64,000 bases of DNA from Candidatus Heimdallarchaeum aukensis (GCA_021513695.1 CP084166.1:2272001-2336000); one strand, 5' to 3'. Counted from the first letter of the stretch, positions 1 through 63,499 are shown. Program-made: numbers and translations. Notes: generated by a model from the letters alone, not told the origin.

Positions 1-98
1 ATACTCACAAGGATAAAATATATGGTTTCTTCCTTGGAAATGAGGACGGTATTATCTTTAAGCATAGAATTTTCAACAAGGAACTCTGTCCTGAATCA

Positions 99-983: not shown

Positions 984-984
984 T

Positions 985-1683: not shown

Positions 1684-1773
1684 GTCAAGTAAAGTTATCC
1701 TATAAGAAAGAATTATCTTTATTCAAAAAGTAAATTAAGAATAGTGAATATAGTTAATCATTAGATTTACAAG

Positions 1774-2463: not shown

Positions 2464-2495
2464 AAAGAGAATACAAAGACAGCCAATTTCTCTAT

Positions 2496-7876: not shown

Positions 7877-8947
7877 TTAAAACGATAAGGAAAAAAAGTC
7901 ATTGTTATTAAGTTTCGAATGAAACAAATAGCTTTTCCATTCAAGTTTACACGAACAAGAAGGTAAGTCCTGAAGAATATTGGGATCTTGAGAAAGAGTG
8001 AAATCTTTTAGGGCTTGAACAATTGTAGAGTCACAAGAACCACAGTTATGAGCTCCTCTCTTTTTACCTCCTGCAACAGGGTCACAAATGATTCTTAAGT
8101 TGGGATAGAGAGTAGAAAGTTCTCGGCAGATATGTACAAGTGACCATAAGTAGGGGGGACGATAAAGATTCTTATCAAAAAGTGAAGAGAGATAAGTGTC
8201 GCGTTGTATATTTATTGCATTAATTGATACGGTGTCTACCCCTAAAGAAACAACCTGTCTAACACTGTTAAAAACGTCCAACATGGAGTCAAATTCTGAA
8301 ACAAAAGGTGGTTTGAAAAGAAGGTAAGCTTTAATTTTTGCCCCAAAGGAAAAAACACGTTTTGTAGCACGTTCGAAATCTTCCCAAAAGAAACCTTTGT
8401 TTATAGAATCACGAAGAATAGCATTATTCGCACTTTCTAATCCTATAGCAATCTCAACTTTAGAAATATCAAAGTGATCACGGAGAAGTGTTAGTTTTTT
8501 TTCTGTAACATATGAAGGTCGAGACTCTAGTACTAACTCTTTAATACTTGACGAATAAGGTTGAAGTTCATGAAGGATAGAAATTAGAACATGGTTTGGG
8601 ACTTCGAGAGAATCAAGAATGCTACCACTAGTAAATAGTTTTATAGAATAAGAAAGGGACGGATCAATTAAAGAGGATAATTTAGAAGAAAAATCAGAGA
8701 GCATCTCTGAAAAATCTGGTTTTTGAGGGTTATCATAAAGATAACCGCAAATTGAACAACCTCCACTACGAGAAAGAGCCCAAGAACAACCTCTTGTAGG
8801 AAGAATAAAAACAATAGCTTTTGCTGGGCCAGTACGAAGACGATGATCTTCAACCCATGCAACAAGACGACGTGAAGTAGAACGCTTGGAAAGGGCTGAT
8901 TGGCGGTAACTATGGATTATGGAACTAAAAGAAGGGTTTATTTTCAT
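7877..8947 (-). CDS. Elp3-related radical SAM enzyme, likely RaSEA, the archaeosine-formation partner of ArcS
   Basis: Elp3-like cluster motif with long spacing (RGCSWALSRSGGCSICGY). A 4-nt ATGA overlap with the upstream arcS start suggests translational coupling. Ser-rich atypical composition. Confidence 0.6.
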   Translation of the reverse strand: MKINPSFSSIIHSYRQSALSKRSTSRRLVAWVEDHRLRTGPAKAIVFILPTRGCSWALSRSGGCSICGYLYDNPQKPDFSEMLSDFSSKLSSLIDPSLSYSIKLFTSGSILDSLEVPNHVLISILHELQPYSSSIKELVLESRPSYVTEKKLTLLRDHFDISKVEIAIGLESANNAILRDSINKGFFWEDFERATKRVFSFGAKIKAYLLFKPPFVSEFDSMLDVFNSVRQVVSLGVDTVSINAINIQRDTYLSSLFDKNLYRPPYLWSLVHICRELSTLYPNLRIICDPVAGGKKRGAHNCGSCDSTIVQALKDFTLSQDPNILQDLPSCSCKLEWKSYLFHSKLNNNDFFSLSF

Positions 8948-11132: not shown

Positions 11133-11209
11133 GGCCTCGTGGCTTAGTTAGGTAAAGCAACGGACTCTTAATCCGTCGATCAGGGGTTCAAATCCCCTCG
11201 AGGTCACCA
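11133..11209 (+). tRNA. tRNA-Lys(CTT), 77 nt with encoded CCA
   Basis: Manual fold: acceptor GGCCTCG/CGAGGTC; D stem GCTT/AAGC; anticodon stem ACGGA/TCCGT with loop CTCTTAA (anticodon CTT at 11167-11169); T arm AGGGG-TTCAAAT-CCCCT; discriminator A + CCA. Confidence 0.9.
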
Positions 11210-11347: not shown

Positions 11348-11455
11348 GGGCTTGTAGCTCAGCTAGGTAGAGCAGCAGGCTTTTAAGCTTTCTGCGAGCC
11401 ATGCAAAAGCGCTGACACCTGTCGGCCATGGGTTCGAATCCCATCAAGCCCGCCA
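11348..11455 (+). tRNA. tRNA-Lys(TTT) with a ~31-nt intron in the anticodon loop (approx. 11386..11416). Encoded CCA.
   Basis: Acceptor GGGCTTG/CAAGCCC; D stem GCTC/GAGC; anticodon stem GCAGG...CCTGT interrupted after position 37; anticodon TTT at 11382-11384; T arm ATGGG-TTCGAAT-CCCAT; discriminator G + CCA. Confidence 0.85.
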
Positions 11456-29065: not shown

Positions 29066-29632
29066 ATGAGAAAAGATGCCTCAGGAAAGCAACACTTTAA
29101 GATAGTGTTTGTTGGACCTAGTTTAGCTGGAAAAACAACTTTACTTAGAAGACTCCATTCTGATGTCACAGGAATAAAAAAAGGTGGATTAAACAGTATA
29201 GAAGATCCTTCAGGAAGAACAATTTACTTTGATTTCTCACCTTTTATGGCGACATCAAATGTCATTTTGGATATTTACACAGTGGCTGGTCAAAAAAGGC
29301 ATAGACACCAAAGGGCGTTAGTTTTGAAGGGTGTTGACGGTCTCTTGTTTGTTGCAGATTCTTCAAGAGCGATGTTGGCCGATAATGTCGAATCAGCAGA
29401 AGAATTGAAAAAAGAACTTGGAGACAAATTAAACAATGAGATTCCACTAGTTATAGTTCTAAATAAACGTGATTTGCCAGATGCAATGGATAAACGAGAG
29501 TTAATCGATGCTTTAAATCTTGGAACAAATTTACCAGTTTACGAAACAATCGCCACAGAAGGTATAGGTGTTAAACGCGCTTTTCAGTCCCTAGCTAGAG
29601 AAGTTTTATTAAAACAAGTTTATAACATGTAG
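29066..29632 (+). CDS. Small Ras-superfamily GTPase (MglA/Arf/Rag-like), cognate of the upstream roadblock protein
   Basis: G1 GPSLAGKTT; switch I Thr; G3 DIYTVAGQ; G4 LNKRDL; G5 TIATEG. Confidence 0.8.
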   Translation: MRKDASGKQHFKIVFVGPSLAGKTTLLRRLHSDVTGIKKGGLNSIEDPSGRTIYFDFSPFMATSNVILDIYTVAGQKRHRHQRALVLKGVDGLLFVADSSRAMLADNVESAEELKKELGDKLNNEIPLVIVLNKRDLPDAMDKRELIDALNLGTNLPVYETIATEGIGVKRAFQSLAREVLLKQVYNM

Positions 29633-32356: not shown

Positions 32357-32833
32357 ATGAGAACTTTTTTTAGATTGAGAATGAGTTTAAAAACAAGTTT
32401 CTACTGCTATGGACATAAAAATGTTTTATGTAAGCATTTAACTACACTTGAATTTACTACAGATGACTTTCTTACATTAAGAGGTGACTGTATAATAGGA
32501 ATAAGATCCAACATGAGTTTGTTTTCACTACCAGAAAAAATGAAACAATTTATCAGAAATGATAATACAAAAATAATTGTCAAGATGGAAGTTGACGATT
32601 TAGTTGAAGAAGTAATAGGCTATGGAAATTCAAAGCTGGAATTATCAGACACACATGCAATGATTATTAGAAAAAGCTCTTACACATGTTCAAGGACTTT
32701 AATGATAGGTGCAAATAAGGCTGCAATTGATATTTCAAGAGAGATTGTTCAAAAAATGAAAAACCCTGATTCTAAAATGAGGGTCACAATTCAAGTGTTT
32801 CCTGCAGATAATAGAAGATCAATACACGCATGA
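32357..32833 (+). CDS. Hypothetical protein (possible DUF371-like)
   Basis: 158-aa ORF. 3' end overlaps the convergent trm5 by ~43 nt. Confidence 0.35.
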   Translation: MRTFFRLRMSLKTSFYCYGHKNVLCKHLTTLEFTTDDFLTLRGDCIIGIRSNMSLFSLPEKMKQFIRNDNTKIIVKMEVDDLVEEVIGYGNSKLELSDTHAMIIRKSSYTCSRTLMIGANKAAIDISREIVQKMKNPDSKMRVTIQVFPADNRRSIHA

Positions 32834-33864
32834 ATCTCATGTGGAGCACTTTCTCTTATTTTTTGAAAGTGAAGAATTTGCTTTATTCTCCAATTTGTTT
32901 TACTTAACTCGTTTTTTACTAAATTGTAGAGGTCATTTCTTCCTGTTTCATCTTTGACAAAAGAATAAAAGTGTAGAATTGTTCCTTCTTTAAAAATTTG
33001 TGAAGCTAATTGTAGAAATTGGATGGACGTTTTTGGTAAATTCATAATGACTCTGTCGGTTTTAGGTAGGTTGTCTATAATTTCTCTAATATCACCTACA
33101 ATTGGGTAAATTTTTCCTTTAAGTTTGTTTAGTGAAATTGATTTCTTAAGGCAATCAATAGCTTTTTGGTTAATATCTATTCCATAAATAGTAGCTTTTG
33201 TTTTTTTGGCTATATGAAGAGGAAAAGGACCTGTACTTGTAAACATGTCTACAACAATTTCTCCCTCTTTGACTAAATTTGCTATTCGATTATGTTCGTC
33301 TCCTAACCTGGGACTAAAATATGTTTTTTCTACATCTACAAATATTCTTATTCCATATTCTTTATGAATTGTTTCGGTTTTTTTTTCGCCAAATAAATGT
33401 TCAATTTTTCTGAGTCTGTATTCACCTGAGACAGCAGAAGTTTTTCTATAAACACTTTTTATTGAAGGAAAGAGGTTACAAAGCATCTTTCCAATTTCAT
33501 GTTTAAAAGGTGAAAGCGTTTCATCAAATTCGATAATTGCGATGTCACCAATTTGATCAAACGATTTTGGGATAAAATCCACCATATTATTTGGAATAAC
33601 ATTTTTTAAAGCTTCAGCAAGGCTTTTTGGTTTTTGTCTTTTTTTCTTAAAGAAAAATTCTACTATCTCTCCTTGCTCTTTTAGTGGAAAATCATTGATG
33701 AAGGCTTTTTTTTTATCAAGATTTATTTTTAATGGAAAAAAAAGATAGTCTTCTTGTTTTGAAATTTTAAAATTAAAATCCAAATAATTGTTATTAATTA
33801 ACCATTTTCTAGTCTGTTCTCCATATGAACAATGAATTTTTAATGCAATGGAACGAACAGACAT
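32791..33864 (-). CDS. trm5: tRNA (guanine37-N1)-methyltransferase Trm5 (Trm5/Tyw2 family)
   Basis: FDQIGDIAII, YFSPRLGDEHNRI (NPPY-like loop), DMFTSTGPFPL (SAM motif), and NLP. Confidence 0.75.
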   Translation of the reverse strand: MSVRSIALKIHCSYGEQTRKWLINNNYLDFNFKISKQEDYLFFPLKINLDKKKAFINDFPLKEQGEIVEFFFKKKRQKPKSLAEALKNVIPNNMVDFIPKSFDQIGDIAIIEFDETLSPFKHEIGKMLCNLFPSIKSVYRKTSAVSGEYRLRKIEHLFGEKKTETIHKEYGIRIFVDVEKTYFSPRLGDEHNRIANLVKEGEIVVDMFTSTGPFPLHIAKKTKATIYGIDINQKAIDCLKKSISLNKLKGKIYPIVGDIREIIDNLPKTDRVIMNLPKTSIQFLQLASQIFKEGTILHFYSFVKDETGRNDLYNLVKNELSKTNWRIKQILHFQKIRESAPHEIHACIDLLLSAGNT

Positions 33865-38502: not shown

Positions 38503-39603
38503 TTGATAAGGTGTGAAAAATACTTGAAAATTCTAAGGCAAGATTATCGTCATGGCTATCTTGAACTAATTCCTGAAACCATAGATGATCTCTATGCTAT
38601 CTATCGTATTCTAAAACCAGGAGATAGAGTGCGTGCTTCAACAAAGAGGAGAATACGTAAAGATTCTGAAGATAGCCGAGCAGATTCTGGGGAAAGAGTC
38701 AAATTAGTTTTAGAAATTAAGGTTGAAAACATTTCCTTTGGAGATAACCTTAGTATTAAAGGACCTATTGTCGCGGGAAATGAAAATCTTATTTCCTTAG
38801 GTGAGTACCACACCATTGCTTTAAAAGAAATGGAAAAAGTCATAATTTATAAGGATCACTGGAATACTTCGGAGAAGCAGATAATTAGCGATATAGAAAA
38901 AGAATCTCGATTAGCTAAAATAGTAATTATTACTCTTGATGAAGGAAGCGTGTGTGTTGCTTTAGTTACACAATTCGCGGTAAAAATTGTTGCTGAAATT
39001 GATCATTCTATCACTCGTAAATTTTCTGATGCAAAACAGCATTCTTCTGCTTTAGGAAAGTTTTTCCAAGAGGTTCTTGAGATCATCAAAGAAGTCTATG
39101 AACAACACAATCCTCAAACGATTATTCTCGCTGGACCTGGCTTTACTCCAGAAAATTTTCTAGATTTTGTTAGAAAAAGAGATAATAGTTTAGCTCAAAA
39201 AATTCAATTTGTTCATGCTAATACTGGAGGACGAGTAGGTTTACATGAAGTTTTGTCCCGCAACCTTCCTGAAAAAATAGCTGAAGAACAAAGAGTAGTT
39301 TACGAAACCAGGTTACTTGAAGAATTCTTTAAGCGTGTAGGTAAAGATACTAACACTGTAACATATGGTTATGACAATGTAAAAAAGGCATTAGAAATGG
39401 GTGCTGTAGATACGTTAATGATTTCAGATGATAAATTGCGGATCTATGACGAAAAAGAGCGAGAAAAAGTTGAACAGCTTATAGAGCTTAATAGACAAAT
39501 GGGTGGAAAAACTGTGTTTTTTTCGACACAACATGAGACAGGAGAAAAGTTAAAATCATTGGGCGGTATCGTAGCGCTATTACGTTATTCAGTTGAGATA
39601 TGA
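38503..39603 (+). CDS. pelA: Pelota (Dom34 homologue), mRNA surveillance factor
   Basis: LKILRQDYRHGYLELIPETIDDLYAIYRILKPGDRV N-terminal Pelota signature. eRF1-like domains 2 and 3. Likely TTG start (38503 or 38524). Confidence 0.8.
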   Translation: MIRCEKYLKILRQDYRHGYLELIPETIDDLYAIYRILKPGDRVRASTKRRIRKDSEDSRADSGERVKLVLEIKVENISFGDNLSIKGPIVAGNENLISLGEYHTIALKEMEKVIIYKDHWNTSEKQIISDIEKESRLAKIVIITLDEGSVCVALVTQFAVKIVAEIDHSITRKFSDAKQHSSALGKFFQEVLEIIKEVYEQHNPQTIILAGPGFTPENFLDFVRKRDNSLAQKIQFVHANTGGRVGLHEVLSRNLPEKIAEEQRVVYETRLLEEFFKRVGKDTNTVTYGYDNVKKALEMGAVDTLMISDDKLRIYDEKEREKVEQLIELNRQMGGKTVFFSTQHETGEKLKSLGGIVALLRYSVEI

Positions 39604-40771: not shown

Positions 40772-41743
40772 TTGGTATCCTCCTTTTTTTCCTTAATGAA
40801 ATGTACATTTTGCGGGACTGATGAAGTTGTCTACGTTCGTCCATATGATAAAATTGCCTTGTGCAAAGAACATTTCAACGAGCAGTTTGAAAGGAGAGTT
40901 AAGCGAACAATTAATCGTTATAAAATGTTTCAACGAAAAGACAAAATTGCAGTAGGAGTTTCTGGAGGAAAAGATAGTATAGCACTTCTTGATACACTTG
41001 TAAAAATCGAAAAGAATTTTCCCGAAAGTGAAATTATTGCTATAACAATAGATGAAGGTATTGAAGGATACAGAGAAGAAGGTTTGTATTACGCTAAAAA
41101 ACACGCAAAAAGGCTTAACGTTGAACACCATATCTTTTCTTTTGAAGAAGATTTTGGTTATTCTTTAGATGAAATTATAGCCATTTTAGGAGAGAGAGGA
41201 GGAAAAAACCGCGCTTATGGAGCTTGTTCATATTGTGGAATTTTACGAAGAAAAATACTTAATGCCGCAGCTAAAACAGTTGGGGCAAATGTAGTCGCAA
41301 CTGGACACAACCTTGAAGATGAAGCTGAAACAGTTCTTTTGAATATAATACGAGGAGATGTCAATCGTTTAAGCAGACAAAGTCCTTTCCCTAAGAAAGT
41401 TCACAAGGATTTAGTTCCAAGAGTGAAACCCTTTAGACTTACTCCTCAAGCAGAAATTGTAATGTATATGATTGTTAATGAATTAGAATATCAGGAAGTT
41501 GCATGCCCATATGCAGTTGAGGCATATAGAGGAAATGTTCGTGATTTTATATTTGAATCACAAAATTCACAACCCATGCTTTCGTTCAATATTGTGAAAG
41601 CTCAAGATAAACTAGTTCCATACTTAACAAGAAATAGAGATGAAACTAAAGCAAAAATTAAAAGTTGTAAAATGTGCGGTGATCCTTCTGCTAGTGAAAT
41701 ATGCAAGGCATGTAGCCTGAAAGAACAATTGTCTAATCTTTGA
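40772..41743 (+). CDS. ncsA: tRNA thiolation PP-loop ATPase NcsA/TtuA (Ncs6/Ctu1 homologue)
   Basis: N-terminal zinc finger CTFCG...CKEHF. PP-loop GVSGGKDS. GH motif. C-terminal zinc finger CKMCGDPSASEICKAC. Confidence 0.8.
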   Translation: MVSSFFSLMKCTFCGTDEVVYVRPYDKIALCKEHFNEQFERRVKRTINRYKMFQRKDKIAVGVSGGKDSIALLDTLVKIEKNFPESEIIAITIDEGIEGYREEGLYYAKKHAKRLNVEHHIFSFEEDFGYSLDEIIAILGERGGKNRAYGACSYCGILRRKILNAAAKTVGANVVATGHNLEDEAETVLLNIIRGDVNRLSRQSPFPKKVHKDLVPRVKPFRLTPQAEIVMYMIVNELEYQEVACPYAVEAYRGNVRDFIFESQNSQPMLSFNIVKAQDKLVPYLTRNRDETKAKIKSCKMCGDPSASEICKACSLKEQLSNL

Positions 41744-42537: not shown

Positions 42538-42880
42538 AGATGCTGAGCTGATAGCAACAGCTAAAGTGGGAAGCTAGGGCTCTCCTGTAACCGGAAACGC
42601 TCTATATGCCGGGCTGAAAACTGCTGCTGAGGGCTCGTCGAGGAAGATACGCTCTGTCTGGAAAGCGTCGAAGCATCGCCCCATGAGATTGTGCACACCC
42701 GAGGCGCCTTTGGAGGAAGGTGTTAGAAGGGTTGAGATCAAAAAGGGTCAGGCACGGAAGTGAGCAGCCCTAAGATCGATGCATGATGCCCATGGCAAGC
42801 GGTGTGGAGCTTAAGGGCAGTAAAACGGCTTCCAAAACGGGTTCGAACAGCAGGCTGCTAAGATTAGTTCAGCAGTCTTG
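42538..42880 (+). ncRNA. ffs: Signal recognition particle RNA (7S/SRP RNA). Boundaries approximate.
   Basis: A GC-rich (~55%) island in AT-rich DNA. Domain IV/helix 8 motif GGUCAGGcaCGGAAGugAGCAGCC. Alu-domain-like CCUGUAACCGGAAAC. Ends in an oligo-T tract at 42881-42889. Confidence 0.65.
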
Positions 42881-49844: not shown

Positions 49845-50118
49845 CTACAAGATTTAAAAAAATATTTGTTGATATATGGACTTAATTTCTTATAAAATCA
49901 AGCAATAGAGCTTGAGAGATGTTTATCGACACAATAACATTAAATCAAATAGTGGTTATCAAATTGTCGCTTGTAATATATTATGAAGACAGTAAAACAA
50001 CCTTTAGCTTGTTTATCAATTAGAAATAACATATTACTATTTTGTTCTTATTTTCTAATTTTTAAATTAAAAGAGATTTTTTTGTTGTTTTCTCATCTCA
50101 TTAATTGTATCAAAAAGT

Positions 50119-50571
50119 CTAAATTTTTACCGAAGCTATTACAGTTTCAAAGTTTATGTCTTCGAATTTATTAATAATTGAATATCCTTCACTATTAATT
50201 GGTAAGTTTGAAATAAATAAAGCATGTATTCTTCTTCCTTCTGGTTTTACTCTTGTAATACGTTCGATGAAATCTTTTATGTCTTCAATAGGAACAAAGC
50301 TGTCTCTATAAAACCTACATTCACCTAAAATAAGTTTTTGTTCATTAAAAGCTACAAAATCAAAAATGAGTATCTCGTTCAGTGTCCAACTTACCCATTG
50401 ATATCCATCGTTTTCATAATCATACATAGGGATATCGAAACCTGATTTTTTTAATTCCTCAACACATAGTTTTACAACATCTGGATGAGCCTTACCAGGG
50501 ACAAAGTAACTTAATTTAGGTAATATATTTGATATTTTTAGTACTAGTTGTGTTGTGAGATTCATCCTCAT
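50119..50571 (-). CDS. Hypothetical protein (possible PD-(D/E)xK-like fold)
   Basis: 150 aa. An ILIFDFVAF...ILGECRF segment loosely resembles a nuclease core; unassigned. Confidence 0.3.
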   Translation of the reverse strand: MRMNLTTQLVLKISNILPKLSYFVPGKAHPDVVKLCVEELKKSGFDIPMYDYENDGYQWVSWTLNEILIFDFVAFNEQKLILGECRFYRDSFVPIEDIKDFIERITRVKPEGRRIHALFISNLPINSEGYSIINKFEDINFETVIASVKI

Positions 50572-50752
50572 TTTTTATATTGGAAAATAGTATAAGAATA
50601 TATTCATCATCTTGATTTTCGTATATTTTTTTCATTCTCTGTTGTTACTTCATATTTTGTCCTATTTCATTCATTTTTTTCATTTTCTTCTTTAGTAAAA
50701 GGTCTTTATCTCTAAACTTAAATATAATAGTAAAAATCTCGATTTAGTTAAA

Positions 50753-51625
50753 ATGAGTTTCGAGATTCTGGATACACGAGAGTTAAATTCCGAGAATACT
50801 TGGATGAAAATTAAAGCTCCTTTAATTGCTGAAAGATGTAAAGCAGGACAATTTGTTATTATACGTGCAAATGAAAAAGGAGAACGAATTCCTCTAACCA
50901 TTGCTAATTGGGATAAAGAAGAAGGTTCTTTTGAAGTTGTTTTTCAAAAAGTGGGTGCAAGTACATTAGAATTAGGCACTTACAAAAAAGGAGATCTATT
51001 GCTCGATGTTGTAGGTCCTTTAGGAATACCCACACATACAGAAGGAGCGGGAAATACCGTGGTTATTGGTGGAGGATTAGGAATTGCAATTGCTACTCCT
51101 GTTGCACGAGCTTATAAAGAAGCAGGAAATAAAGTACATGTTATTATAGGGGCTCGAACAAAAGAATTGCTCTTTAATATTGAAATTTTAGAATCTTTTG
51201 CAGATGGACTAACGATTTGTACAGATGACGGTAGTTTTGGTATTAAAGGCTTTGTGACCCAACCATTACAAGAAATGATCGATAAAGGAGAAAAAATTGA
51301 TACTGTATTTTGTGTTGGCCCCCCCATAATGATGAAGTTTATTTCAAAAATAACAGAAAAACATGGGATTCACACTGTTGCTTCTCTCAATACTATTATG
51401 TTAGATGGAACAGGTATGTGTGGTGCATGTAGAGTTACTGTTGGTGACGAAATTAAATTTGTTTGTGTTGACGGTCCTGACTTCGATGCACATTTAGTAG
51501 ATTGGGATGAAATGATGGCTAGAACACAAGCTTATAGAGAAGAAGAGAAAATAGCATTAGAGCACTACCATAAATGTAGAGCTGAAAAGGCTTTAGAAGA
51601 GCAAAATGCTCAAGAAAATAAGTAG
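50753..51625 (+). CDS. nfnA: NfnA/SudB-like FAD/NAD(P)-binding ferredoxin-reductase-type subunit with [2Fe-2S]
   Basis: PyrK-like fold: RIPLTIA, GGGLGIAI, and C-terminal CGACRV..C cluster. Confidence 0.7.
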   Translation: MSFEILDTRELNSENTWMKIKAPLIAERCKAGQFVIIRANEKGERIPLTIANWDKEEGSFEVVFQKVGASTLELGTYKKGDLLLDVVGPLGIPTHTEGAGNTVVIGGGLGIAIATPVARAYKEAGNKVHVIIGARTKELLFNIEILESFADGLTICTDDGSFGIKGFVTQPLQEMIDKGEKIDTVFCVGPPIMMKFISKITEKHGIHTVASLNTIMLDGTGMCGACRVTVGDEIKFVCVDGPDFDAHLVDWDEMMARTQAYREEEKIALEHYHKCRAEKALEEQNAQENK

Positions 51626-51637
51626 AGGTAGAAAAAG

Positions 51638-53104
51638 ATGGGTTCCGAAGCAAAAAAAAGTAGGGGTAGAAAGCCATTAGTAAGAACAAGATTACCTATG
51701 GCTACACAGAGACCAGAAGATAGAGTAAAAAATTTTAATGAAGTTCCTTATGGTTATAATGAAGCAGAAGCAGTCCTTGAATCACAAAGATGCCTTCAAT
51801 GTAGAAACGCTCCTTGTGTTAAAGGATGTCCTGTTGAAGTTCCAATTCCTCAATTTATTAAATTGGTTCAAGAAGGTAAATTCGTTGAGGCTGCAGAAGT
51901 AATAAAAACAAAAAATAGTCTTCCTGCTATAACTGGAAGAGTATGCCCACAAGAACTTCAATGTGAAGCACGTTGTGTTATGGGGAGAAGATATCAACCT
52001 GTATCAATAGGTAATCTTGAACGTTTTGTTGCTGATTATGCAAGAGAACATGGTGAAGCGTTACCTGAACTCCCTGAACCAACTGGAAAAAAAGTGGCTG
52101 TAGTAGGTGCAGGCCCAGCAGGATTAACATGTGCAGGGGATCTAGCTTTACTTGGACATGAAGTAACAGTTTTTGAAGCTCTTCATGCTCCTGGTGGTGT
52201 TTTAATATATGGTATTCCAGAATTTCGTTTACCTAAAGATATTGTCAGATATGAAACTAATTACTTAAAGAAATTAGGTGTAAAGATTATACCCAATTTT
52301 ATTATTGGGAAAAATAAAACCGTTAAAGAGCTACTAAATGAATTTGATGCAGTTTTTATAGGCACTGGTGCAGGTTCTCCAAGATTGCTAAAAATTCCAG
52401 GAATAAACCTAGTTAATGTATATTCAGCTAATGAATACCTAACCAGAGTAAATCTGTTGAAAGGTTATCTGTTTCCTGAATATAAAACTCCAGTGAAAAA
52501 AGGAAAAACTGTTATTACAATTGGAGCTGGAAACGTAGCTATGGATGCGGCACGAACCGCAAAAAGACTTGGAGCAGAGAACTCAATAATAGTTTACAGA
52601 AGAAGTAAAAAAGAATGTCCAGCTAGAGTAGAAGAAGTACATCACGCAGAGGAAGAAGGTATAGATTTCAGATTTTTAACTAATCCAATTAGAATAATAG
52701 GCGATGAAAATGGACGTGTAAAGGCTTTAGAATGCCTGCGTTACAAACTTGGCGAACCAGATGAAACAGGAAGAGCTAAACCTATTCCTATTGAAGGTTC
52801 AGAGCATATAATCGAATGTGATGTTGTTATAATTGCAATTGGAAACAATCCTAACCCCATTATTCCTCAAACTACACCAGACTTAGAAACTAGTAAGTGG
52901 GGAACAATAATCACTAACTCGAAAACAGGAGAAACTAGTTTACAACGAGTTTATGCTGGAGGAGATATAGCAACAGGAGCAGCAACAGTTATTGCAGCGA
53001 TGGGAGCAGGAAAAATAGCCGCAAAAAGCATCCACAAACAATTAATGGGTCACGAAATCGATGAAGAAGAACATAACCTCGAAGTTGGCAAATGTGACTC
53101 TTAA
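51638..53104 (+). CDS. nfnB: NfnB/SudA-like glutamate-synthase-small-subunit-type NADPH oxidoreductase
   Basis: N-terminal 2x[4Fe-4S] (CLQCRNAPCVKGCP, CPQELQCEARC); FAD site VAVVGAGPAGL; NAD(P)H site IGAGNVAMD. Confidence 0.8.
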   Translation: MGSEAKKSRGRKPLVRTRLPMATQRPEDRVKNFNEVPYGYNEAEAVLESQRCLQCRNAPCVKGCPVEVPIPQFIKLVQEGKFVEAAEVIKTKNSLPAITGRVCPQELQCEARCVMGRRYQPVSIGNLERFVADYAREHGEALPELPEPTGKKVAVVGAGPAGLTCAGDLALLGHEVTVFEALHAPGGVLIYGIPEFRLPKDIVRYETNYLKKLGVKIIPNFIIGKNKTVKELLNEFDAVFIGTGAGSPRLLKIPGINLVNVYSANEYLTRVNLLKGYLFPEYKTPVKKGKTVITIGAGNVAMDAARTAKRLGAENSIIVYRRSKKECPARVEEVHHAEEEGIDFRFLTNPIRIIGDENGRVKALECLRYKLGEPDETGRAKPIPIEGSEHIIECDVVIIAIGNNPNPIIPQTTPDLETSKWGTIITNSKTGETSLQRVYAGGDIATGAATVIAAMGAGKIAAKSIHKQLMGHEIDEEEHNLEVGKCDS

Positions 53105-53177
53105 ATTTCTAAACCTTTTTTTAATTCCCTTTCAATCTTTTTTTGGTAAAAAAGTCTTAATCCAGTATTGATCTTAT

Positions 53178-53657
53178 CTATAAGATTAAACGATAAAGAT
53201 AGGCATTTTCTCCATCTTCATAATATTTTCGAATAGTTCTGATTCGCTTAAAACCCATTTTTTCATATAGATTAATTGCATAATTATTAGTTACTCTTAC
53301 CTCGAGTTTAATCGAACTAAAACCTAGTTCTTTTACTTTAGTTACGAAGTATCTAAGCAGCATTTTTCCGTATCCTTTCTTCCTAAAATTTCTATGAATT
53401 GCTATAGAAAGTATATGTGCTTCAGACTTAAATGATGATCTTCCACCAAGAATGAAACCTATTATCTTGCTATTAGAATTACTATTATCCAATAAATTAA
53501 CATCTGTTTCTAAAACAAAGCATAGGTCAGGATTCTGAAAGAAAATTAAGGAAATATACGATTCAGGGAAAGGAAATGCAAACGTGATTCGCTCTAAATC
53601 ATAAACATCAATAATATCTTCAGCTTGCATTTCCCTTATCTGCACCATAAGTTTCAC
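53178..53657 (-). CDS. GNAT N-acetyltransferase (RimI-like)
   Basis: Acetyl-CoA motif A (HRNFRKKGYGKMLL) within a GNAT fold. Confidence 0.7.
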   Translation of the reverse strand: MKLMVQIREMQAEDIIDVYDLERITFAFPFPESYISLIFFQNPDLCFVLETDVNLLDNSNSNSKIIGFILGGRSSFKSEAHILSIAIHRNFRKKGYGKMLLRYFVTKVKELGFSSIKLEVRVTNNYAINLYEKMGFKRIRTIRKYYEDGENAYLYRLIL

Positions 53658-53769
53658 AATTAGTAGTCATTGATTACAACCATAGTTTAGTAGAAAAAAA
53701 CTTTGTGTTCTATTAAATAGTTTAAAATAGGGAAAGTTAAATAAGACTTTGAGTAGATTCTTATGCCTT

Positions 53770-54010
53770 CTATCGAGGACTTGCTAGAGGTTGTTTATGA
53801 CAAACGATGAAAGCAAGAGCAAAAAGAAGGCTACAGCCTATCATATACGGGCTCTTTACCAAGTTGAGTGTGTCACTCAGAACAATGAGGTTGAGTCAAC
53901 CCTGATAGGCTACATTGGGTTCTCCTGAGGAGCTCTGCTAGCAGATGTGGGGTTGTCCCAAAGATGAAGCTTAGTGTTAGCCTTAGGGGAACCCTTTAGT
54001 TATATTGAAA
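53770..54010. ncRNA. Candidate structured noncoding RNA of unknown class (GC-enriched spacer with multiple perfect short hairpins)
   Basis: GC ~45% against a ~30% background. Hairpins gagtgTGTcactc, ggttgaGTCaacc, ctccTGAggag, tgggGTTGtccca. No ORF. Strand undetermined. Confidence 0.25.
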
Positions 54011-54057
54011 CAGAAAAATTAAAAATAGGTTGGAATTAAGCAATTCAGTAGAAAATA

Positions 54058-54132
54058 GGGGTAGTAGTCTAGTGGTATGACAACGCCTTCACGCGGCGTA
54101 GGTCGCAGGTTCAATTCCTGCCTACCCCACCA
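54058..54132 (+). tRNA. tRNA-Val(CAC), CCA encoded
   Basis: Acceptor GGGGTAG/CTACCCC; anticodon stem ACGCC/GGCGT with loop TTCACGC (anticodon CAC 54090-54092); T arm GCAGG-TTCAATT-CCTGC; discriminator A. Confidence 0.9.
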
Positions 54133-54140
54133 CTAACAAT

Positions 54141-55121
54141 TTGTTGAGAAATCAAATGTCAGAATCAAATACTGATCACGGATTTATTGACCTTTTTTCG
54201 GGAGCTGGAGGTTTTAGTTCTGGGTTTAGACTTGCTGGCTTTAAAGAATTACTCGCTATTGAAAGAGATCCCTCTGCCTTAAGAACATACAACTTGAACC
54301 TGCCTGATGCAATTTGTATAAATGATGATATACGAAATATTCATTCCTTAGAAATAGAACAAAAATGTTCTCAAAAACCAACAGTTATATTAGCTTCTCC
54401 TCCTTGTGAACCATTCACTGCTGCAAATACAAAACGAAAGGAAACTGCGTGGGAAAGGTTTTTTGAGGACCCTCAAGGTGATTTAATTTTTCATGCAATA
54501 AGGATAATCAAAGACTTGAATCCCGATTTTTTTGTTATTGAAAATGTTGTGCCTATTATAGATGGTGAAGGAAAAGATATTATTCTCGAAGCTTTTGCAG
54601 ACTCCAAATTCCAAGACATCCATTTTAATGTTATTCGTGCAGAAAAACACGGTTCTCCTTCTTCTAGAAAACGTGTTTTTATTTCTAACATTAATCTTAA
54701 TTTAGAGAAAAAAAAGACTGTTACTGTTGGTCAAGCTTTATCTGGTCTTCAGGATCCTTCCTATCCAAATGATCTTCCCAATCATTTTTTATCTCCTGTT
54801 CCTGATAAGATTCAAAAAAGAATTCATCAAATCAAGCCTGGGCATGCAGCTGTTTACTTTGAAGGAGCTTTAAGTGAAAAAGTAAATTGGGTCAAGCTTG
54901 ATAAAGACAAAGTTTCCCCTACTGTGATGGGGAAATCTCGATTTATTCATTTTCATCAAGATAGAGCCTTAACTGTACGTGAACATGGACGATTGATGAC
55001 CTTTCATGATGATTTTAAATTTACTGGAACGATTGAGGAAATGTATAACCAAGTTGGAGAGGCAGTTCCTCCATTAATTTCTTATTTGATCGCAGAAGAG
55101 ATAAAAAAACAAATTAGTTGA
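54141..55121 (+). CDS. DNA (cytosine-5)-methyltransferase (Dcm family), orphan
   Basis: Motif I FIDLFSGAGGF; motif IV PC (ASPPCEPFT); motif VI ENV; motifs IX/X at the C-terminus. Starts 9 nt after tRNA-Val. Confidence 0.85.
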   Translation: MLRNQMSESNTDHGFIDLFSGAGGFSSGFRLAGFKELLAIERDPSALRTYNLNLPDAICINDDIRNIHSLEIEQKCSQKPTVILASPPCEPFTAANTKRKETAWERFFEDPQGDLIFHAIRIIKDLNPDFFVIENVVPIIDGEGKDIILEAFADSKFQDIHFNVIRAEKHGSPSSRKRVFISNINLNLEKKKTVTVGQALSGLQDPSYPNDLPNHFLSPVPDKIQKRIHQIKPGHAAVYFEGALSEKVNWVKLDKDKVSPTVMGKSRFIHFHQDRALTVREHGRLMTFHDDFKFTGTIEEMYNQVGEAVPPLISYLIAEEIKKQIS

Positions 55122-55174
55122 AAGTATCAATTTTTCCAAAACATTTAATTTTTCTATAGTAAATTTCTTTTAGA

Positions 55175-56227
55175 ATGTCTTCGAGTAAATCATCTAGTAA
55201 AGCGAAAAGGATAAATTTTTCCACTCTTTTTAAAGGAATAATTAAAGCTGGTTATTGTGCTTCTTGTGGAGCTTGTGTAAGTGTCTGTCCTGTTAATAGT
55301 ATTGAAATGCAAAATGATCTTCCAAAACTTGTTTCTACATGCATTTCTTGTGGAGCTTGTGTAGATGCTTGTTATCGTTTCCAAAAACGAGAGAAACAAG
55401 AACAAGCAGCAATGGATCCGAATGAAATTTTAGAAATATATACTGCTAAAGCTAAAGATGAACGTATTTATACTCAAGCACAGAATGGGGGTGTTGTTAC
55501 AACTCTTCTAGTTCATGCATTTGAGGAAGGGCTAATTGATGGGGCTTTAGTTACGGATAAGTACTCTAATCTTTTTGAACCTAAACCTATCCTAGTAAAT
55601 ACCTCAGAAGGTGTTATTCATGGGGCTGGATCAAAATATGTTATTAGTAATAGCTTAACAAAATTAGATGCTGTTCGTACTAGTCATAAAAAGAAAGCAG
55701 CAATTGTTGGTGTTCCTTGTCATATTGAATCTCTTACACGAATCATGGAATTTGGATATCTGGGACTTGATCATAGGGTTGCTTTGAAAATAGGTCTATT
55801 CTGTATGCACTCTTATGATAAAAATCTGCTCAAACAATTTGTTGCTGATAAATTTAACATTACTCCTGAACAAATAATAAAGATGGATATTGATAAAGGT
55901 AAGTTCATTTTTGTTACTGAAACAGAGAAATACAAAGTAAAGTTATCAGATATAGATTCCGCTTTCTACAATGGATGCCACTTTTGTTCAGATTTTACTG
56001 CAGACTATTCAGATATTGCTGTAGGTAATATTGGTGTAGACACAAAGAGCAATGTTGTTTTAGTTCGCACTCAGAAAGGCAAAGAATTGTTTGAATCTGC
56101 AATCGAAAAGGGACTTCTTGAAGTAACAAAAATTGATTCTTCAGAATGGGAGACAAAATTTGGGCTTGTCTTCAAACTTGAAAAAAGAAAGAAAAAAGAG
56201 GCTAAAGCCCTTCCCGCTCTAGACTAA
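55175..56227 (+). CDS. FrhB/FdhB-family protein (coenzyme F420 hydrogenase/dehydrogenase beta-subunit-like) with N-terminal 2x[4Fe-4S]
   Basis: CASCGACVSVCP and CISCGACVDAC ferredoxin motifs, followed by FrhB_FdhB N/C domains. Confidence 0.65.
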   Translation: MSSSKSSSKAKRINFSTLFKGIIKAGYCASCGACVSVCPVNSIEMQNDLPKLVSTCISCGACVDACYRFQKREKQEQAAMDPNEILEIYTAKAKDERIYTQAQNGGVVTTLLVHAFEEGLIDGALVTDKYSNLFEPKPILVNTSEGVIHGAGSKYVISNSLTKLDAVRTSHKKKAAIVGVPCHIESLTRIMEFGYLGLDHRVALKIGLFCMHSYDKNLLKQFVADKFNITPEQIIKMDIDKGKFIFVTETEKYKVKLSDIDSAFYNGCHFCSDFTADYSDIAVGNIGVDTKSNVVLVRTQKGKELFESAIEKGLLEVTKIDSSEWETKFGLVFKLEKRKKKEAKALPALD

Positions 56228-56235
56228 CCATTGAT

Positions 56236-57000
56236 TTGGTGATCTCTTCATTGAAAAAAATTGAACTTTTTTCCATTCCTTTTCCTATTGTTAAAAAAGG
56301 AGATAATATCGCTGAACTGATTCTAAAAGAATTAAGTGAAAACAATATAGAAATTCAAGATGGAGACATTTTTGTTATTGCTCACACTATTATTTCTCGC
56401 GCAGATGGAAATGAATACTATCTACCAACAATTTCTCCTTCTTTTCTTGCTGAAATAATTTCTCGTAAAACAGGAAAAGACCCTTCTTTAGTTCAATTAA
56501 TTCTAAATGAGTCGTCTTCTCTAGAGAAAGTTCAGAATAACATTATTATTAGTAAACATCGTCTAGGGTGGATATCTGCTAATGCCGCAGTTGATCAGTC
56601 CAACTCTCTTCCTAACCATGCTGTTACGTTACCTACTGATCCTGAAAAAACTGCTAAAAAAATTGGCTCTTATTTACAATCCAAATTAAAGAAAAAGATT
56701 TCAATATTGATTTCAGATACTCATGGTCGTGCTCTTAGGAGAGGAGCAATTAACATAGCAATTGGTTCTTATAATTTTTCAGTAATTGATGATGCAAGAG
56801 GTCGCAAAGATATTTTTGGCAATGAACTAAAATCCACTCTTGTGGCATTAGCTGATGAAGTTTGTTCTGCTGCAGAGTTATTAATGGGACAAGCTGACGA
56901 AATGTCTCCGATTGTTATTATAAGAGGATTTACTCAACGTTCACCTGTTTCTTCAATTTATGAATTGCAATATGAAGATGATAAACGACTTTTTAAATGA
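56236..57000 (+). CDS. cofE: Coenzyme F420-0:L-glutamate ligase CofE
   Basis: Near-collinear match to the CofE signature: KKGDNIAELI...DGDIFVIAHTIISRADG...ISANAAVDQSN...ISDTHGRALRRGAINIAIG...IFGNELK...ALADEVCSAAELLMGQADE...VIIRGF. Confidence 0.8.
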   Translation: MVISSLKKIELFSIPFPIVKKGDNIAELILKELSENNIEIQDGDIFVIAHTIISRADGNEYYLPTISPSFLAEIISRKTGKDPSLVQLILNESSSLEKVQNNIIISKHRLGWISANAAVDQSNSLPNHAVTLPTDPEKTAKKIGSYLQSKLKKKISILISDTHGRALRRGAINIAIGSYNFSVIDDARGRKDIFGNELKSTLVALADEVCSAAELLMGQADEMSPIVIIRGFTQRSPVSSIYELQYEDDKRLFK

Positions 57001-57063
57001 AAAAAGAGTAAGTTTAAATAATAACCAAATTAATTCAATCAACAAAAGCAATTCGCTTGTAAG

Positions 57064-57795
57064 GTGTATTATGTGTTTAAACGTTCAAAACGCTCAAAGC
57101 TTGAAGAAGCTAATATACTCTTAGGAGAAGCAAAGGTTCTAGGTCAGCAAAGGAAATATCAAGAAGCCACTGAAACAATTGAAAAAGCAATAGCACTTTT
57201 TACACAGGAAAATGATAGACAAAAACTTGATCTGTCTAAAGCTCTATTTTATGAATTCAAAGCTGAACAATCTATAAAGTCTAACAGAGCTTTAGAAGCT
57301 TCTAACTATCTCGGGAGAGCCGGAGGATTTTACATGCGTTTGCATATGGTTAACGATTTAAACCGGGTTTACAAGAAACAAGCGGACATTTTACTTATTC
57401 TAGCTAGACAAACTATGAAAGAAAAACATTTTATTGAAGCAGCGTCTTATTTTGAGCAAGCCGCTATGGCTTATCAAAAATTAAAAAATAAAGAAATGGA
57501 ACTTGATTGTAAAGCTAAATCTTATGTTTCTCGTGCAGCTGCAGAAAAAACTATATCTGGAAGGAAGGTTTATCTTAGAAAAGCAGTGGAAATAATGCAA
57601 GAAACAGGAACTGATAATCCAATAATAAAGGGCCATCTAGCTTATTATAATGGTTTATTTATTAAGGAAGAAAAGAAAGAGGAAGCTCTTCGCTATTTTA
57701 GTGAAGCTTTACAGAACTATCAAAAAGCTGGAATGTCAAAAAGGGTAGAAGAAATAAAAAAGATGATTAATGACCTAGTTTCAAGCCAGATCTAG
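57064..57795 (+). CDS. Helical-repeat (TPR-like) hypothetical protein
   Basis: 243-aa all-alpha sequence with repeated A/Y/L spacing (EATETIEKAIALF...EAASYFEQAAMAYQKL...EALRYFSEALQNYQKAG). Confidence 0.4.
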   Translation: MYYVFKRSKRSKLEEANILLGEAKVLGQQRKYQEATETIEKAIALFTQENDRQKLDLSKALFYEFKAEQSIKSNRALEASNYLGRAGGFYMRLHMVNDLNRVYKKQADILLILARQTMKEKHFIEAASYFEQAAMAYQKLKNKEMELDCKAKSYVSRAAAEKTISGRKVYLRKAVEIMQETGTDNPIIKGHLAYYNGLFIKEEKKEEALRYFSEALQNYQKAGMSKRVEEIKKMINDLVSSQI

Positions 57796-57847: not shown

Positions 57848-58504
57848 CTATCTAATGTATATCTCTCTAAATTTCAAAACCTTTTCTTCACTTTGGATAG
57901 CTAATCTTGCAGCATGAGAAAAAAGTTTTTCAACATTTTCAGATGATAATGCAGATGTTTCTATATAATCAAAATTATTTTCTTTTGCATATTCTTCTGC
58001 TTTTTCTCTGTCTACAGCTCTTGCATTTTTTAGATCACTCTTATTTCCACATAAAATAATTGGAATTTCTGAACATTTTTTCTTTATTTCACTAACCCAA
58101 AAGGATACATCATCAAATGTTGACGTTTTAGTAATATCATAGACTACGATAGCAACTTTAGCTCCTAGAAAATATTTTTGTCTAACAAATCCAAAAATTT
58201 CTTGAGCTCCTGTATCCCATAAACTAATTCTAACATTAACATCATCGGTGAGTATATTTTTAGACAAATTTTCATTTAATTCGTCCTTTGTTAAGGAAAG
58301 ACTTTTCGTTAACCAACTCACACCCATTGTTGGGATATAAGAATATGAGAAAGTGTTCATAGCATATCTTCTTGCCAATGATGTTTTTCCTACAAAAGCT
58401 GAACCAATTGTTATAATTTTATACAAATGTCGTTCTATCATTTTTATCTCCAAAATATTTCTATTAGTTTTCTTTCTATGTTGATACTGCTTAAACGCCT
58501 CCAA
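57848..58504 (-). CDS. Rab/Ras-like small GTPase (eukaryote-like)
   Basis: G1 GSAFVGKTS; switch I YIPTMGV; G3 LWDTGAQE; G4 GNKSDL; G5 ETSAL. Confidence 0.8.
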   Translation of the reverse strand: MEAFKQYQHRKKTNRNILEIKMIERHLYKIITIGSAFVGKTSLARRYAMNTFSYSYIPTMGVSWLTKSLSLTKDELNENLSKNILTDDVNVRISLWDTGAQEIFGFVRQKYFLGAKVAIVVYDITKTSTFDDVSFWVSEIKKKCSEIPIILCGNKSDLKNARAVDREKAEEYAKENNFDYIETSALSSENVEKLFSHAARLAIQSEEKVLKFREIYIR

Positions 58505-59419: not shown

Positions 59420-61612
<2,193 letters not shown>

Positions 61613-61780: not shown

Positions 61781-63499
61781 TTAGCAACCCGGAGTGAAGT
61801 AAGGCTTAAGTTCTCCAATATGAGAATCTTCTTCGAGAGTTGCTATCTGATAAATTTTATACCCTCCAGTTAGATTTCTTGGATCAAAACCATGTTGCTT
61901 TAGAATTCGGTATGCGAGATAAGAAGTGAATCCAGTCACACAATGTAGATATACTGGCTTATTTTTTGGAATCTCATCTAGCCTTTCTCTTAATTGACCA
62001 ATAGGTATGTTTATCGCACCTGGAATACAACCTTCAGCATGTAATTCTGGTCCTCTTACGTCAATAATTGTCGCCCCTTCTTCTTTTAATTTCTGTGCTT
62101 CATTCCAATGCCATATCTTCACTTCTCCCCTCATTACGTTAGAAGCAACAAAACCAGCCATATTTACACAATCTCTGGCACAACCAAATTGTGGAGCATA
62201 GCACAATTCAAGATTTTCTAAATCATATACTGTCCCCTTAAAGTTTATAACTGTTGCAATGACATCTATCCTTTTTTCTGTTCCTGGCCCACCTACTGCT
62301 TGTGCTCCTAATATTCTGCCATTTTTAGAGTCAAAAATCAGTTTCATTGATATTTCTTGGGCATCAGGGTAGTAACTTGCATGATTTTGGGGATGAACAT
62401 AGATTTTCTCATAGTTAGTAATTCCTAATGATTTGAGTTGTTTCTCGTTTAATCCAGTTTGAGCAACAGTTTTGTCAAAGACTTTAAGAACAGCCGTACC
62501 TATTGAGCCTTTGTAAGTTGTATCTCTTCCAGCAAGATTGTCAGCAGCTATTCTCCCTTCTCTGTTAGCTGGACCAGCAAGAGGAACAACAGTCGGCTTT
62601 TCAGTAATGAAATTTTTAATCTGAACAGCATCACCTACAGCATATATATCAGGGTCAGAGGTTTGCATGTGTTCGTCAACTATTATATATCCTCGTTCAG
62701 TTAGTTCGAGACCACAATCTTTAGCTAAATGTGTGTCTGGTCTAATCCCTATACTCAAAATGACAAGATCTGTTCCAATTTTCCTTCCGCTTTTAGTAAT
62801 AACTTTGTACTTTCCTTCTCCATCTGTAGACTTCTCAATGCCTACAACCCCATCTCCTAAAATAAGTTTGACCCTATTGAGTACAAGTTCATTATGGATA
62901 AATTGTGCCATCTCTCTGTCTAATGTAGGTAAAACTTGGTCTAAAAGTTCAATTACTTTTACACGAATACCTCTTCGACTAAGATTTTCGACCATTTCTA
63001 ATCCTATATACCCTCCTCCTATTACTGTTGCTGTAACAGGGTTGTTCTTCTCAATAAATTCATATATTTTTTCTGTATCTGGAATATTACGGAGAGAAAA
63101 AATAGGTATATCATCCATTCCTCTGAAAGGAGGACGAATTGGCTCTGCACCAGGTGCTAAAACAAGCTTGTCATAAGAAAGTTCATACTCTTTTCCCACT
63201 TCTCTGTCAATCACTTTAACTATTTTCCTTTCTCGATCGATTGAAATAGCCTCATTCAAAACTCTGACATCAATATTGAAAAACTGTTTAAATTTTTCAG
63301 GTGTCATTAAAACTAGTTTTTCGCGGTCTTGTATCACTTTTCCAATATAATAAGGAAGACCACAGTTTGCAAAAGAAACATATGGTCCTCGTTCTAGTAT
63401 TATTATTTCCGCAAATTCATCTAATCGCCGATATCTAGCTGCTGTGCTTGCGCCACCAGCAACACCACCTATTATTATTATTCTCTTTTTCAATTTCAT
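61781..63499 (-). CDS. CoA-disulfide reductase / NAD(FAD)-dependent oxidoreductase fused to a C-terminal rhodanese domain
   Basis: FAD site IIIGGVAGGAS; redox Cys in SFANCGLPYY; NAD site VIGGGYIGLE; C-terminal rhodanese with active-site CVTGFTS. Confidence 0.8.
   Translation of the reverse strand: MKLKKRIIIIGGVAGGASTAARYRRLDEFAEIIILERGPYVSFANCGLPYYIGKVIQDREKLVLMTPEKFKQFFNIDVRVLNEAISIDRERKIVKVIDREVGKEYELSYDKLVLAPGAEPIRPPFRGMDDIPIFSLRNIPDTEKIYEFIEKNNPVTATVIGGGYIGLEMVENLSRRGIRVKVIELLDQVLPTLDREMAQFIHNELVLNRVKLILGDGVVGIEKSTDGEGKYKVITKSGRKIGTDLVILSIGIRPDTHLAKDCGLELTERGYIIVDEHMQTSDPDIYAVGDAVQIKNFITEKPTVVPLAGPANREGRIAADNLAGRDTTYKGSIGTAVLKVFDKTVAQTGLNEKQLKSLGITNYEKIYVHPQNHASYYPDAQEISMKLIFDSKNGRILGAQAVGGPGTEKRIDVIATVINFKGTVYDLENLELCYAPQFGCARDCVNMAGFVASNVMRGEVKIWHWNEAQKLKEEGATIIDVRGPELHAEGCIPGAINIPIGQLRERLDEIPKNKPVYLHCVTGFTSYLAYRILKQHGFDPRNLTGGYKIYQIATLEEDSHIGELKPYFTPGC

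Follow-up and report, generated by a model that had tools for sequence, protein, structure and literature searches.

The archaeal box H/ACA guide sRNAs closest to the locus described here are Pab40, Pf7 and Pho40 of the Thermococcales (Rfam RF00064) and Afu4 of Archaeoglobus, which carry three adjacent H/ACA motifs. Their 23S rRNA sites, P. abyssi 2588, 2678 and 2016, are equivalent to E. coli 2496, 2586 and 1915 and have been assigned to motifs 1-3 of Pab40/Pf7/Afu4 and to the halobacterial homologues (PMC2377435, PMC2584109). The first, P. abyssi Psi2588, has Pab40 motif 1 as its guide and is also conserved in eukaryotes (PMC2377435). The second, U2586, is the expected target of Pf7/Afu4 motif 2, and pseudouridine occurs there in H. 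marismortui, Drosophila and mouse (PMC2377435). The third, U1915, is the site of Pab40 motif 3 (PMC2377435, PMC2584109). Active Pyrococcus motifs have a 6-bp upper stem and an ANA sequence 14-15 nt from the target-adjacent guide nucleotide, and ANA has been reported as needed for Cbf5 binding (PMC2377435).

In Halobacteria, the hairpins HP1 and HP2 are homologues of Pf7 stems II and III and have been proposed as guides of Psi2621 and Psi1956/1958 in H. marismortui numbering (Grosjean et al. 2008, PMC2584109). Psi2621, the HP1 target, is U2586, and the halobacterial helix 69 hairpin was proposed to serve two uridines (the 1915/1917 equivalents) by alternative pairings (PMC2584109). In eukaryotes, snR191 of yeast and U19 of human guide the helix 69 pseudouridines at the E. 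coli 1915/1917 equivalents (PMC2584109). These two RNAs use the same Cbf5/dyskerin chemistry as is proposed below for the Heimdallarchaeum sRNA, but their organisation is hairpin-hinge-hairpin-tail, has both an H and an ACA box and lacks a K-turn. The likeness is one of targets and not of demonstrated RNA homology.

Here we analysed 64,000 nucleotides of the Candidatus Heimdallarchaeum aukensis genome, referred to as the window. A literature search combining Asgard or Heimdallarchaeum with H/ACA found no title or abstract on such guides among the papers listed, which is no proof of their absence. We conclude with high confidence that positions 53765-53997 of the plus strand encode a stand-alone archaeal guide sRNA of the box H/ACA type with three motifs, which corresponds in Heimdallarchaeum to Pab40/Pf7/Afu4 (Rfam HgcG). 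It is a diverged new member of a known family and not a new kind of RNA. Judged from its sequence, it most likely guides pseudouridine formation in 23S rRNA.

A match to RF00064 in the window

Rfam searches were run both at the curated gathering thresholds and by E-value. At the gathering thresholds, only the SRP RNA and three tRNAs were reported from the window. By E-value, a scan of 53550-54200 matched RF00064 (HgcG/Pab40, archaeal H/ACA sRNA) at 53709-53998, covering the full model (positions 1-276) with 50.5 bits and E = 8.5e-13. When the whole window was compared with 4,227 families, the same match had E = 8.4e-11 and was the sole sub-threshold match of note. True Thermococcus members of the family score 207-210 bits. 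The Heimdallarchaeum score lies below the RF00064 gathering threshold of 77 bits, which is a curation threshold and no biological feature, and the sRNA is therefore missed by routine annotation.

A sequence-only reading of this DNA had described 53700-54057 as a GC-enriched, hairpin-dense noncoding region holding an unassigned structured RNA candidate, which it could not match to RNase P RNA motifs or to SRP RNA. The RF00064 match and the motif anatomy given below bear out a noncoding structured RNA gene distinct from both. That reading had listed H/ACA among the families to be scanned with Infernal, and it is an H/ACA family that was found; it had also named a confident Infernal assignment as grounds for refuting its candidate, and the label "unassigned" is accordingly withdrawn. 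The GC enrichment was reproduced (47.0% at 53765-53994 on the plus strand, compared with 32.3% in the whole window and 38% in the full interval 53700-54057). Within that interval, the structured core spans 53765-53997, and the remainder is putative promoter and spacer.

The plus strand of this region folded with a minimum free energy of -85.3 kcal/mol, compared with -65.8 +/- 4.9 kcal/mol for 200 dinucleotide shuffles (z = -4.0), none of which folded as well. The opposite strand gave z = -2.8 against dinucleotide shuffles. The plus-strand fold is organised as three consecutive long hairpins, whose coordinates were confirmed by script (Table 1).

Table 1. Positions of the sRNA and neighbouring elements, counted from the first nucleotide of the window
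Feature	Position	Strand	Evidence or remark
Whole H/ACA sRNA, three hairpins plus UUU tail, ~230 nt	53765-53997	+	RF00064 match; fold z = -4.0; 98.3% identity to PR6
TATA-like box UUAAAUAA, preceded by purine-rich GGGAAAG	53737-53744	+	Read from sequence; invariant in PR6 and L039
Hairpin 1	53765-53831	+	Fold; covariation of both helices
Hairpin 1 5' guide AUCGAGGA	53772-53779	+	CGAGGA invariant in all lineages
Hairpin 1 3' guide A-GCAAAA(A)	53818-53824	+	Then U before ACA
ACA box, hairpin 1	53833-53835	+	Invariant column
Hairpin 2	53836-53910	+	Fold; AACCC-to-ACA spacing as in Thermococcus
ACA box, hairpin 2	53912-53914	+	14 nt from target-adjacent guide nucleotide
Hairpin 3	53917-53994	+	Fold; GUUA common to the helix 69-targeting motif 3 of Pab40
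AAC, non-canonical box of hairpin 3, paired within extended lower stem	53990-53992	+	GUUA + 10 nt position
TATA-like UUAAAAAUA of tRNA-Val	54020-54028	+	~30 nt upstream of tRNA
tRNA-Val(CAC)	54058-54132	+	63 nt past hairpin 3; outside the sRNA

Anatomy of the three hairpins

All three hairpins contain a lower stem, an internal-loop pocket and an upper stem of about 6 bp, and the pairs listed here are canonical. At the sequence level, each upper stem is capped by a predicted K-turn, that of hairpin 2 being an A.A variant. The motifs lie in the order of RF00064, with the family guide sequences at the family spacing.

In hairpin 1, the lower stem GCCUUCU/AGAAGGC has 7 bp and the upper stem CUUGCU/AGCAAG has 6 clean bp, followed by the K-turn A-GA ... 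GAU-GA-A (53786-53788 and 53806-53811) and an apical stem. From G53819 to U53832, which directly precedes ACA, there are 14 nt. Hairpin 2 has an 8-bp lower stem (GCCUAUCA/UGAUAGGC), the 5' guide UAUACGGGCU (53844-53853) and an upper stem, CUUUAC/GUUGAG, of 6 bp with one U.U mismatch. Its K-turn variant, C-AA ... AAU-GA-G, carries A.A in place of A.G at one sheared position and supports the apical stem GUU-GAGUG/CACUC-AG-AAC, and its 3' guide UC-AACCC (53896-53902) is followed by U and then ACA. With 6-bp upper stems and ACA at 14 nt, hairpins 1 and 2 satisfy the spacing rules established for Pyrococcus (6 bp and 14-15 nt; PMC2377435), and by sequence they display the stem, pocket, K-turn and box features expected of an archaeal H/ACA motif.

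The lower stem of hairpin 3, GGGUUCUCCUGAGG/CCUUAGGGGAACCC, has 14 bp. Its 5' guide is AGCUCU (53931-53936) and its 3' guide GUUAG (53976-53980), the upper stem GCUAGC/GCU(U)AGU comprises 6 bp with one bulged U, and the K-turn is canonical (A-GA ... GAU-GA-A, 53943-53945 and 53963-53968).

The four short hairpins quoted in the sequence-only reading are all present in the DNA, two as parts of this architecture and two as incidental complementarities. GAGUG-UGU-CACUC (53866-53878) and UGGG-GUUGU-CCCA (53948-53960) are the apical stems over the K-turns of hairpins 2 and 3, respectively. CUCC-UGA-GGAG (53922-53932) lies within the 5' strand of the hairpin 3 lower stem. The remaining one, written as ggttga-GUC-tcaacc, is actually GGUUGAGUCAACC (GGUUG-AGU-CAACC, 53889-53901), which can form at most 5 bp with a 3-nt loop; because it overlaps the 3' strand of the hairpin 2 upper stem and the 3' guide, we regard it as a competing, non-functional fold.

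Comparison with Pab40, Afu4 and other relatives

Like Pab40/Pf7/Pho40 and Afu4, the Heimdallarchaeum sRNA places three H/ACA motifs next to one another, and their order is the same. It shares with Pab40 and Afu4 the ACA-GCC junction between motifs 1 and 2, the CGAGGA...GC guide elements, AACCC placed 14 nt before ACA and GUUA followed by the 10-nt spacing. Unlike those of Pab40, its stems are AT-rich and fully re-coded, with changes on both sides in 5/8 and 5/6 pairs of hairpin 1, and its K-turns bear extra apical stems instead of being K-loops. Motif 3 departs furthest, with AAC where Pab40 has ANA, a 14-bp lower stem and another 5' guide; the score under the Rfam cut-off is a further difference. 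Compared with halobacterial HP1 and HP2, all three hairpins are contiguous in Heimdallarchaeum.

A two-hairpin homologue was found in a Methanofastidiosia MAG (JBHIDS010000045.1; locus L003, 3528-3730). Its two hairpins correspond by homology to hairpins 1 and 3, each with an apical stem above its K-turn; it lacks hairpin 2, and the box of its hairpin 3 is a canonical ACA. With 51.9 bits, it too falls below the Rfam cut-off. The RF00064 family seems to gain or lose hairpins as modules.

Conservation and covariation

We scanned a pattern based on hairpin 1 over one genome per prokaryotic species. The pattern matched Thermococcales MAGs, the Methanofastidiosia MAG and, as a complete genome, Candidatus Heimdallarchaeum endolithica PR6. 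A further dozen or so matches, scattered over bacteria, were taken as chance, about 8 being expected. A locus from a PR6-like strain (L039), reached through FrhB-like homologues, carries a near-identical sRNA. In a synteny look-up in the distant relative GCA_054001415.1, the sRNA was not near the RimI or FrhB-like homologues, and a hairpin 1 covariance model detected no further homologues in the loci examined. A 16-kb contig identical to part of the window occurs in SRR15988954.

The window aligned to PR6 over 50059-57729 at 88.5% identity. Within this block, identity was 98.3% for the sRNA and 98.7% for tRNA-Val, compared with 93-95% for the intergenic flanks, 85-93% for the neighbouring CDSs and 69-88% for third codon positions. 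The sRNA is under purifying selection. All four substitutions that separate it from PR6 are structure-neutral: two lie in stems, turning C-G into U.G (upper stem of hairpin 1) and U-A into U.G (lower stem of hairpin 3), and the other two fall in apical loops, one in hairpin 2 and one in hairpin 3.

Hairpin 1 aligned cleanly across Heimdallarchaeum, Methanofastidiosia and Thermococcus, and its helices covary across these three lineages, a comparison that the sequence-only reading had proposed. The two helices showed standard pairs in 97.1% of cells and changes on both sides in 10 of 14 pairs, values reached by 0 of 500 shuffles, whereas slid registers gave only 39-64% pairing. The guide elements CGAGGA and GC, the AUGA of the K-turn and the ACA are invariant. 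The formal column-wise count covers hairpin 1 only, and close homologues come from one genus; in the MAFFT alignment, a spacer nucleotide, a bulge and the longer stem shift the columns of hairpins 2 and 3 out of register. Their spacing is fixed in the lineages compared (AACCC 14 nt before ACA in hairpin 2, GUUA plus 10 nt in hairpin 3), and the hairpin 2 lower stem, with 5 of 8 pairs re-coded relative to Thermococcus, is still fully paired.

Predicted targets in 23S rRNA

Target sites were searched on the 23S and 16S rRNAs of H. marismortui (a PLSDB replicon), with positions mapped to E. coli rrlH; this rRNA is a heterologous proxy and not the cognate one. The top site for hairpin 1 was UUGC[UA]CCUCGAUG, the E. 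coli 2496 equivalent, with a score of 27 against 14 for the runner-up. The AUCGAGG of hairpin 1 pairs with 23S CCUCGAU (E. coli 2498-2504), and the 3' guide pairs with UUUU(U)GC directly 5' of the target U; E. coli 23S itself has C at 2496. The same H. marismortui site ranked first for the Methanofastidiosia hairpin 1 and second for the Thermococcus one. The predicted target of hairpin 1 was also used to scan metagenomes, which returned one contig (Ga0172288_1230385, L033), whose archaeal-type LSU reads UUUUGC-U-U-CCUCGAUG at the 2496 equivalent, a perfect 14-bp match. These complementarities give good support to the 23S U at the E. coli 2496 equivalent, in 5'-UUUU(U)GC-U-N-CCUCGAU-3', as the predicted target of hairpin 1.

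The L033 contig was rejected as a cognate stand-in for hairpins 2 and 3, being divergent and probably chimeric. Over 1-3203, its archaeal-type LSU (model positions 755-2987) is joined directly to a bacterial LSU 5' third, a junction probably due to chimeric assembly. Divergence in the archaeal-type part is unusually high (as in GGGUUCAAUUCGUCGCAAGACAG), and directly after AAGGUAGC the contig leaves the usual LSU sequence, possibly at an intron.

For hairpin 2, AACCC pairs with GGGUU (2581-2585), which puts U2586 in the pocket. The 5' guide ACGGGC fits GCCCGU perfectly; the corresponding sequence, part of a covarying helix from 2588, is GACCGU in H. marismortui and GAACGU in E. coli, and on the heterologous H. 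marismortui rRNA the expected site was tied for second place. By sequence, U2586 in GGGUU-U-A-G(C)CCGU is the probable target of hairpin 2.

For hairpin 3, GUUA is complementary to UAAC (1911-1914) in the helix 69 loop, a pairing that brings U1915 into position. On the H. marismortui proxy, the motifs of Thermococcus and Methanofastidiosia recovered the helix 69 site at ranks 3 and 4. With the 5' guide AGCUCU of the Heimdallarchaeum hairpin, no helix 69 match was found on H. marismortui or L033, both heterologous rRNAs; from its sequence, this guide would fit only a lineage-specific helix 69 stem, with three or four loop nucleotides unpaired. Homology to motif 3 alone points to helix 69 U1915 (UAAC-U-A...) as the target, with U1917 possibly an additional one.

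From the biochemistry of the family, we infer how the expressed sRNA would act. On each hairpin, L7Ae would bind at the K-turn, whereas the lower stem and 3' box would be bound by a Cbf5-Nop10-Gar1 module. Pairing of both internal-loop strands with 23S rRNA would leave a U-N unpaired between them, and Cbf5 would isomerise this U to pseudouridine. No Cbf5, Nop10, Gar1 or L7Ae gene was found within the window (Pfam scan of 50 ORFs and precomputed matches, 44-60 kb).

The box of hairpin 3

At 14 and 15 nt, hairpin 3 reads AAC and ACC, respectively, neither of which is ANA, and the AAC pairs with the GUU of the 14-bp stem. The same AAC is present in PR6 and L039, and the corresponding position reads ACA or AUA in 16 of 16 Thermococcales sequences and in the one Methanofastidiosia sequence. 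The element is best called H/ACA-like.

One reading of these features, which we consider unlikely but of real weight, is that only hairpins 1 and 2 work as H/ACA motifs, hairpin 3 having degenerated or been repurposed as an ANA-less H/ACA-like element or towards a target other than helix 69. The replacement of ANA by an AAC sequestered in the long stem speaks for this, as do an upper stem that requires a bulged U and a 5' guide that matches helix 69 of neither the H. marismortui nor the L033 LSU rRNA. However, because the helix 69 stem differs from lineage to lineage, rRNAs other than the cognate one are expected to mismatch the guide. Hairpin 3 is also conserved like hairpins 1 and 2 (97.4% identity to PR6, both substitutions structure-neutral) and retains a textbook K-turn and the family GUUA 3' guide at the family spacing. 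Its conservation and intact K-turn argue that the hairpin is still in use.

Were hairpin 3 instead a functional module independent of ANA, the 14-bp stem might replace the single-stranded ACA anchor for Cbf5, and one pocket might serve both U1915 and U1917, as with the eukaryotic guides snR191 and U19. We regard this proposal as speculative and doubtful. Under it, the short guides would leave 3-4 nucleotides of the helix 69 loop (U-A-U-G) unpaired. In Pyrobaculum "H/ACA-like" sRNAs, the lower stem is reportedly wholly absent; unlike them, the Heimdallarchaeum hairpin 3 has an unusually long one. Those RNAs are K-turn guide hairpins that lack a canonical ACA (PMC4652768) and offer a possible analogy to hairpin 3. 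If this proposal is true, the archaeal lineage closest to eukaryotes would contain an intermediate guide design, ANA-less and dual-target. The ANA-less hairpin 3 poses a small, testable question, namely how strict the need of Cbf5 for the ACA box is.

Putative promoter and genomic context

The TATA-like box UUAAAUAA lies 21-28 nt upstream of hairpin 1. Archaeal promoters generally place the TATA box about 26 nt from the start, here taken to the first base of hairpin 1. The box is thus a putative promoter, with a predicted transcription start near 53763-53767. Pab40 transcripts begin at the first base of motif 1, which matches this predicted start. A UUU (53995-53997) directly follows hairpin 3.

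The structured region could also be the 5' leader of a tRNA-Val precursor, co-transcribed with the tRNA and released by RNase P, its hairpins serving both processing and guiding. The closeness of the tRNA, whose start is just 63 nt past hairpin 3, the shortness of the UUU after the sRNA and the retention of the sRNA-tRNA-Val arrangement in three Heimdallarchaeum genomes (the present one, PR6 and L039) are compatible with such a precursor. However, tRNA-Val has a separate TATA-like sequence of its own, and the Thermococcus and Methanofastidiosia homologues were found without reference to any tRNA. We judge such a precursor improbable, and it would leave the identity of the RNA unchanged, that is, a three-motif H/ACA guide sRNA.

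The flanking genes encode a RimI-like acetyltransferase, a C5 DNA methyltransferase, an FrhB-like protein and a CofE-like protein, all unrelated to pseudouridylation. The methyltransferase gene downstream of tRNA-Val (54141-55121) is intact in the window and split into two ORFs, an apparent pseudogene, in the PR6-like strain (L039, 4927-5952). In GCA_054001415.1, whose RimI is 51% identical, an SRP RNA gene (L034, 9523-9828) lies divergently upstream of RimI, in the slot that the sRNA occupies in Heimdallarchaeum; the SRP RNA of the window is at 42554-42861, 11 kb from the sRNA.

Several features elsewhere in the window were recorded. An Rfam tRNA match of 60.7 bits and 105 nt at 11348-11452 (+), about 140 nt downstream of tRNA-Lys (11133-11209), was not reported by ARAGORN and is probably an intron-containing archaeal tRNA. 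Genes for small GTPases of the Arf/Ras/Roc type at 29066-29632 (+) and 57848-58504 (-) are typical of Asgard genomes, and genes for CDC48 (59420-61609) and an eRF1/Pelota-like protein (38503-39603) are also present. The tRNA-modification genes at 8944-10872, 32791-33864 and 40772-41743 (ArcS/TGT-like with DUF5591, Trm5/TYW2 and a TtuA-like PP-loop protein) include none tied to pseudouridylation. A weak Rfam match to Vibrio V_AS7 at 63300-63468 (+), with 35.5 bits against a cut-off of 90 and E = 0.004, is antisense to the CDS 61781-63499 and most likely due to chance.

Other RNA classes and coding potential

Nothing beyond GC richness and hairpins speaks for a different class, such as an RNase P variant, a riboswitch or riboregulator, a C/D sRNA or a cis-regulatory element. 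HgcG was the only significant Rfam match; no competing family was found in the interval, all other matches having E >= 0.06 and lying far below their cut-offs. Neither the local nor the whole-window E-value scan lent support to an RNase P, SRP, riboswitch or C/D reading, and the options of an RNase P variant, a riboregulator or a cis element, raised from the sequence earlier, are unsupported. Together with ACA boxes, K-turns and rRNA complementarity, which are specific to H/ACA guides, this makes another class highly improbable.

The likelihood that the region encodes a small protein is negligible: short ORFs do exist (a 45-aa TTG-start ORF at 53791-53928 and a 32-aa ORF at 53807-53905), but 53765-53994 holds no ORF of at least 60 aa and none over 45 aa, in agreement with the first description of the region as noncoding, those of 30-45 aa are of chance size and lack a supporting start context, the single substitution inside them (53873) falls at a second codon position yet in an RNA loop, and conservation tracks the RNA structure.

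Discussion

The triple guide of the Pab40/Afu4 type was known before from Thermococcales, from Archaeoglobus and, in part, from Halobacteria. Our results place it also in Heimdallarchaeum, an Asgard archaeon near eukaryotes, in a form too diverged for the Rfam threshold; this is a gain in annotation more than a discovery. The predicted targets, namely the helix 69 loop and the E. coli 2496 and 2586 equivalents, are positions reported as pseudouridylated in eukaryotic large-subunit rRNA. The presence of the sRNA in this lineage fits a pre-eukaryotic origin of these guided modifications.
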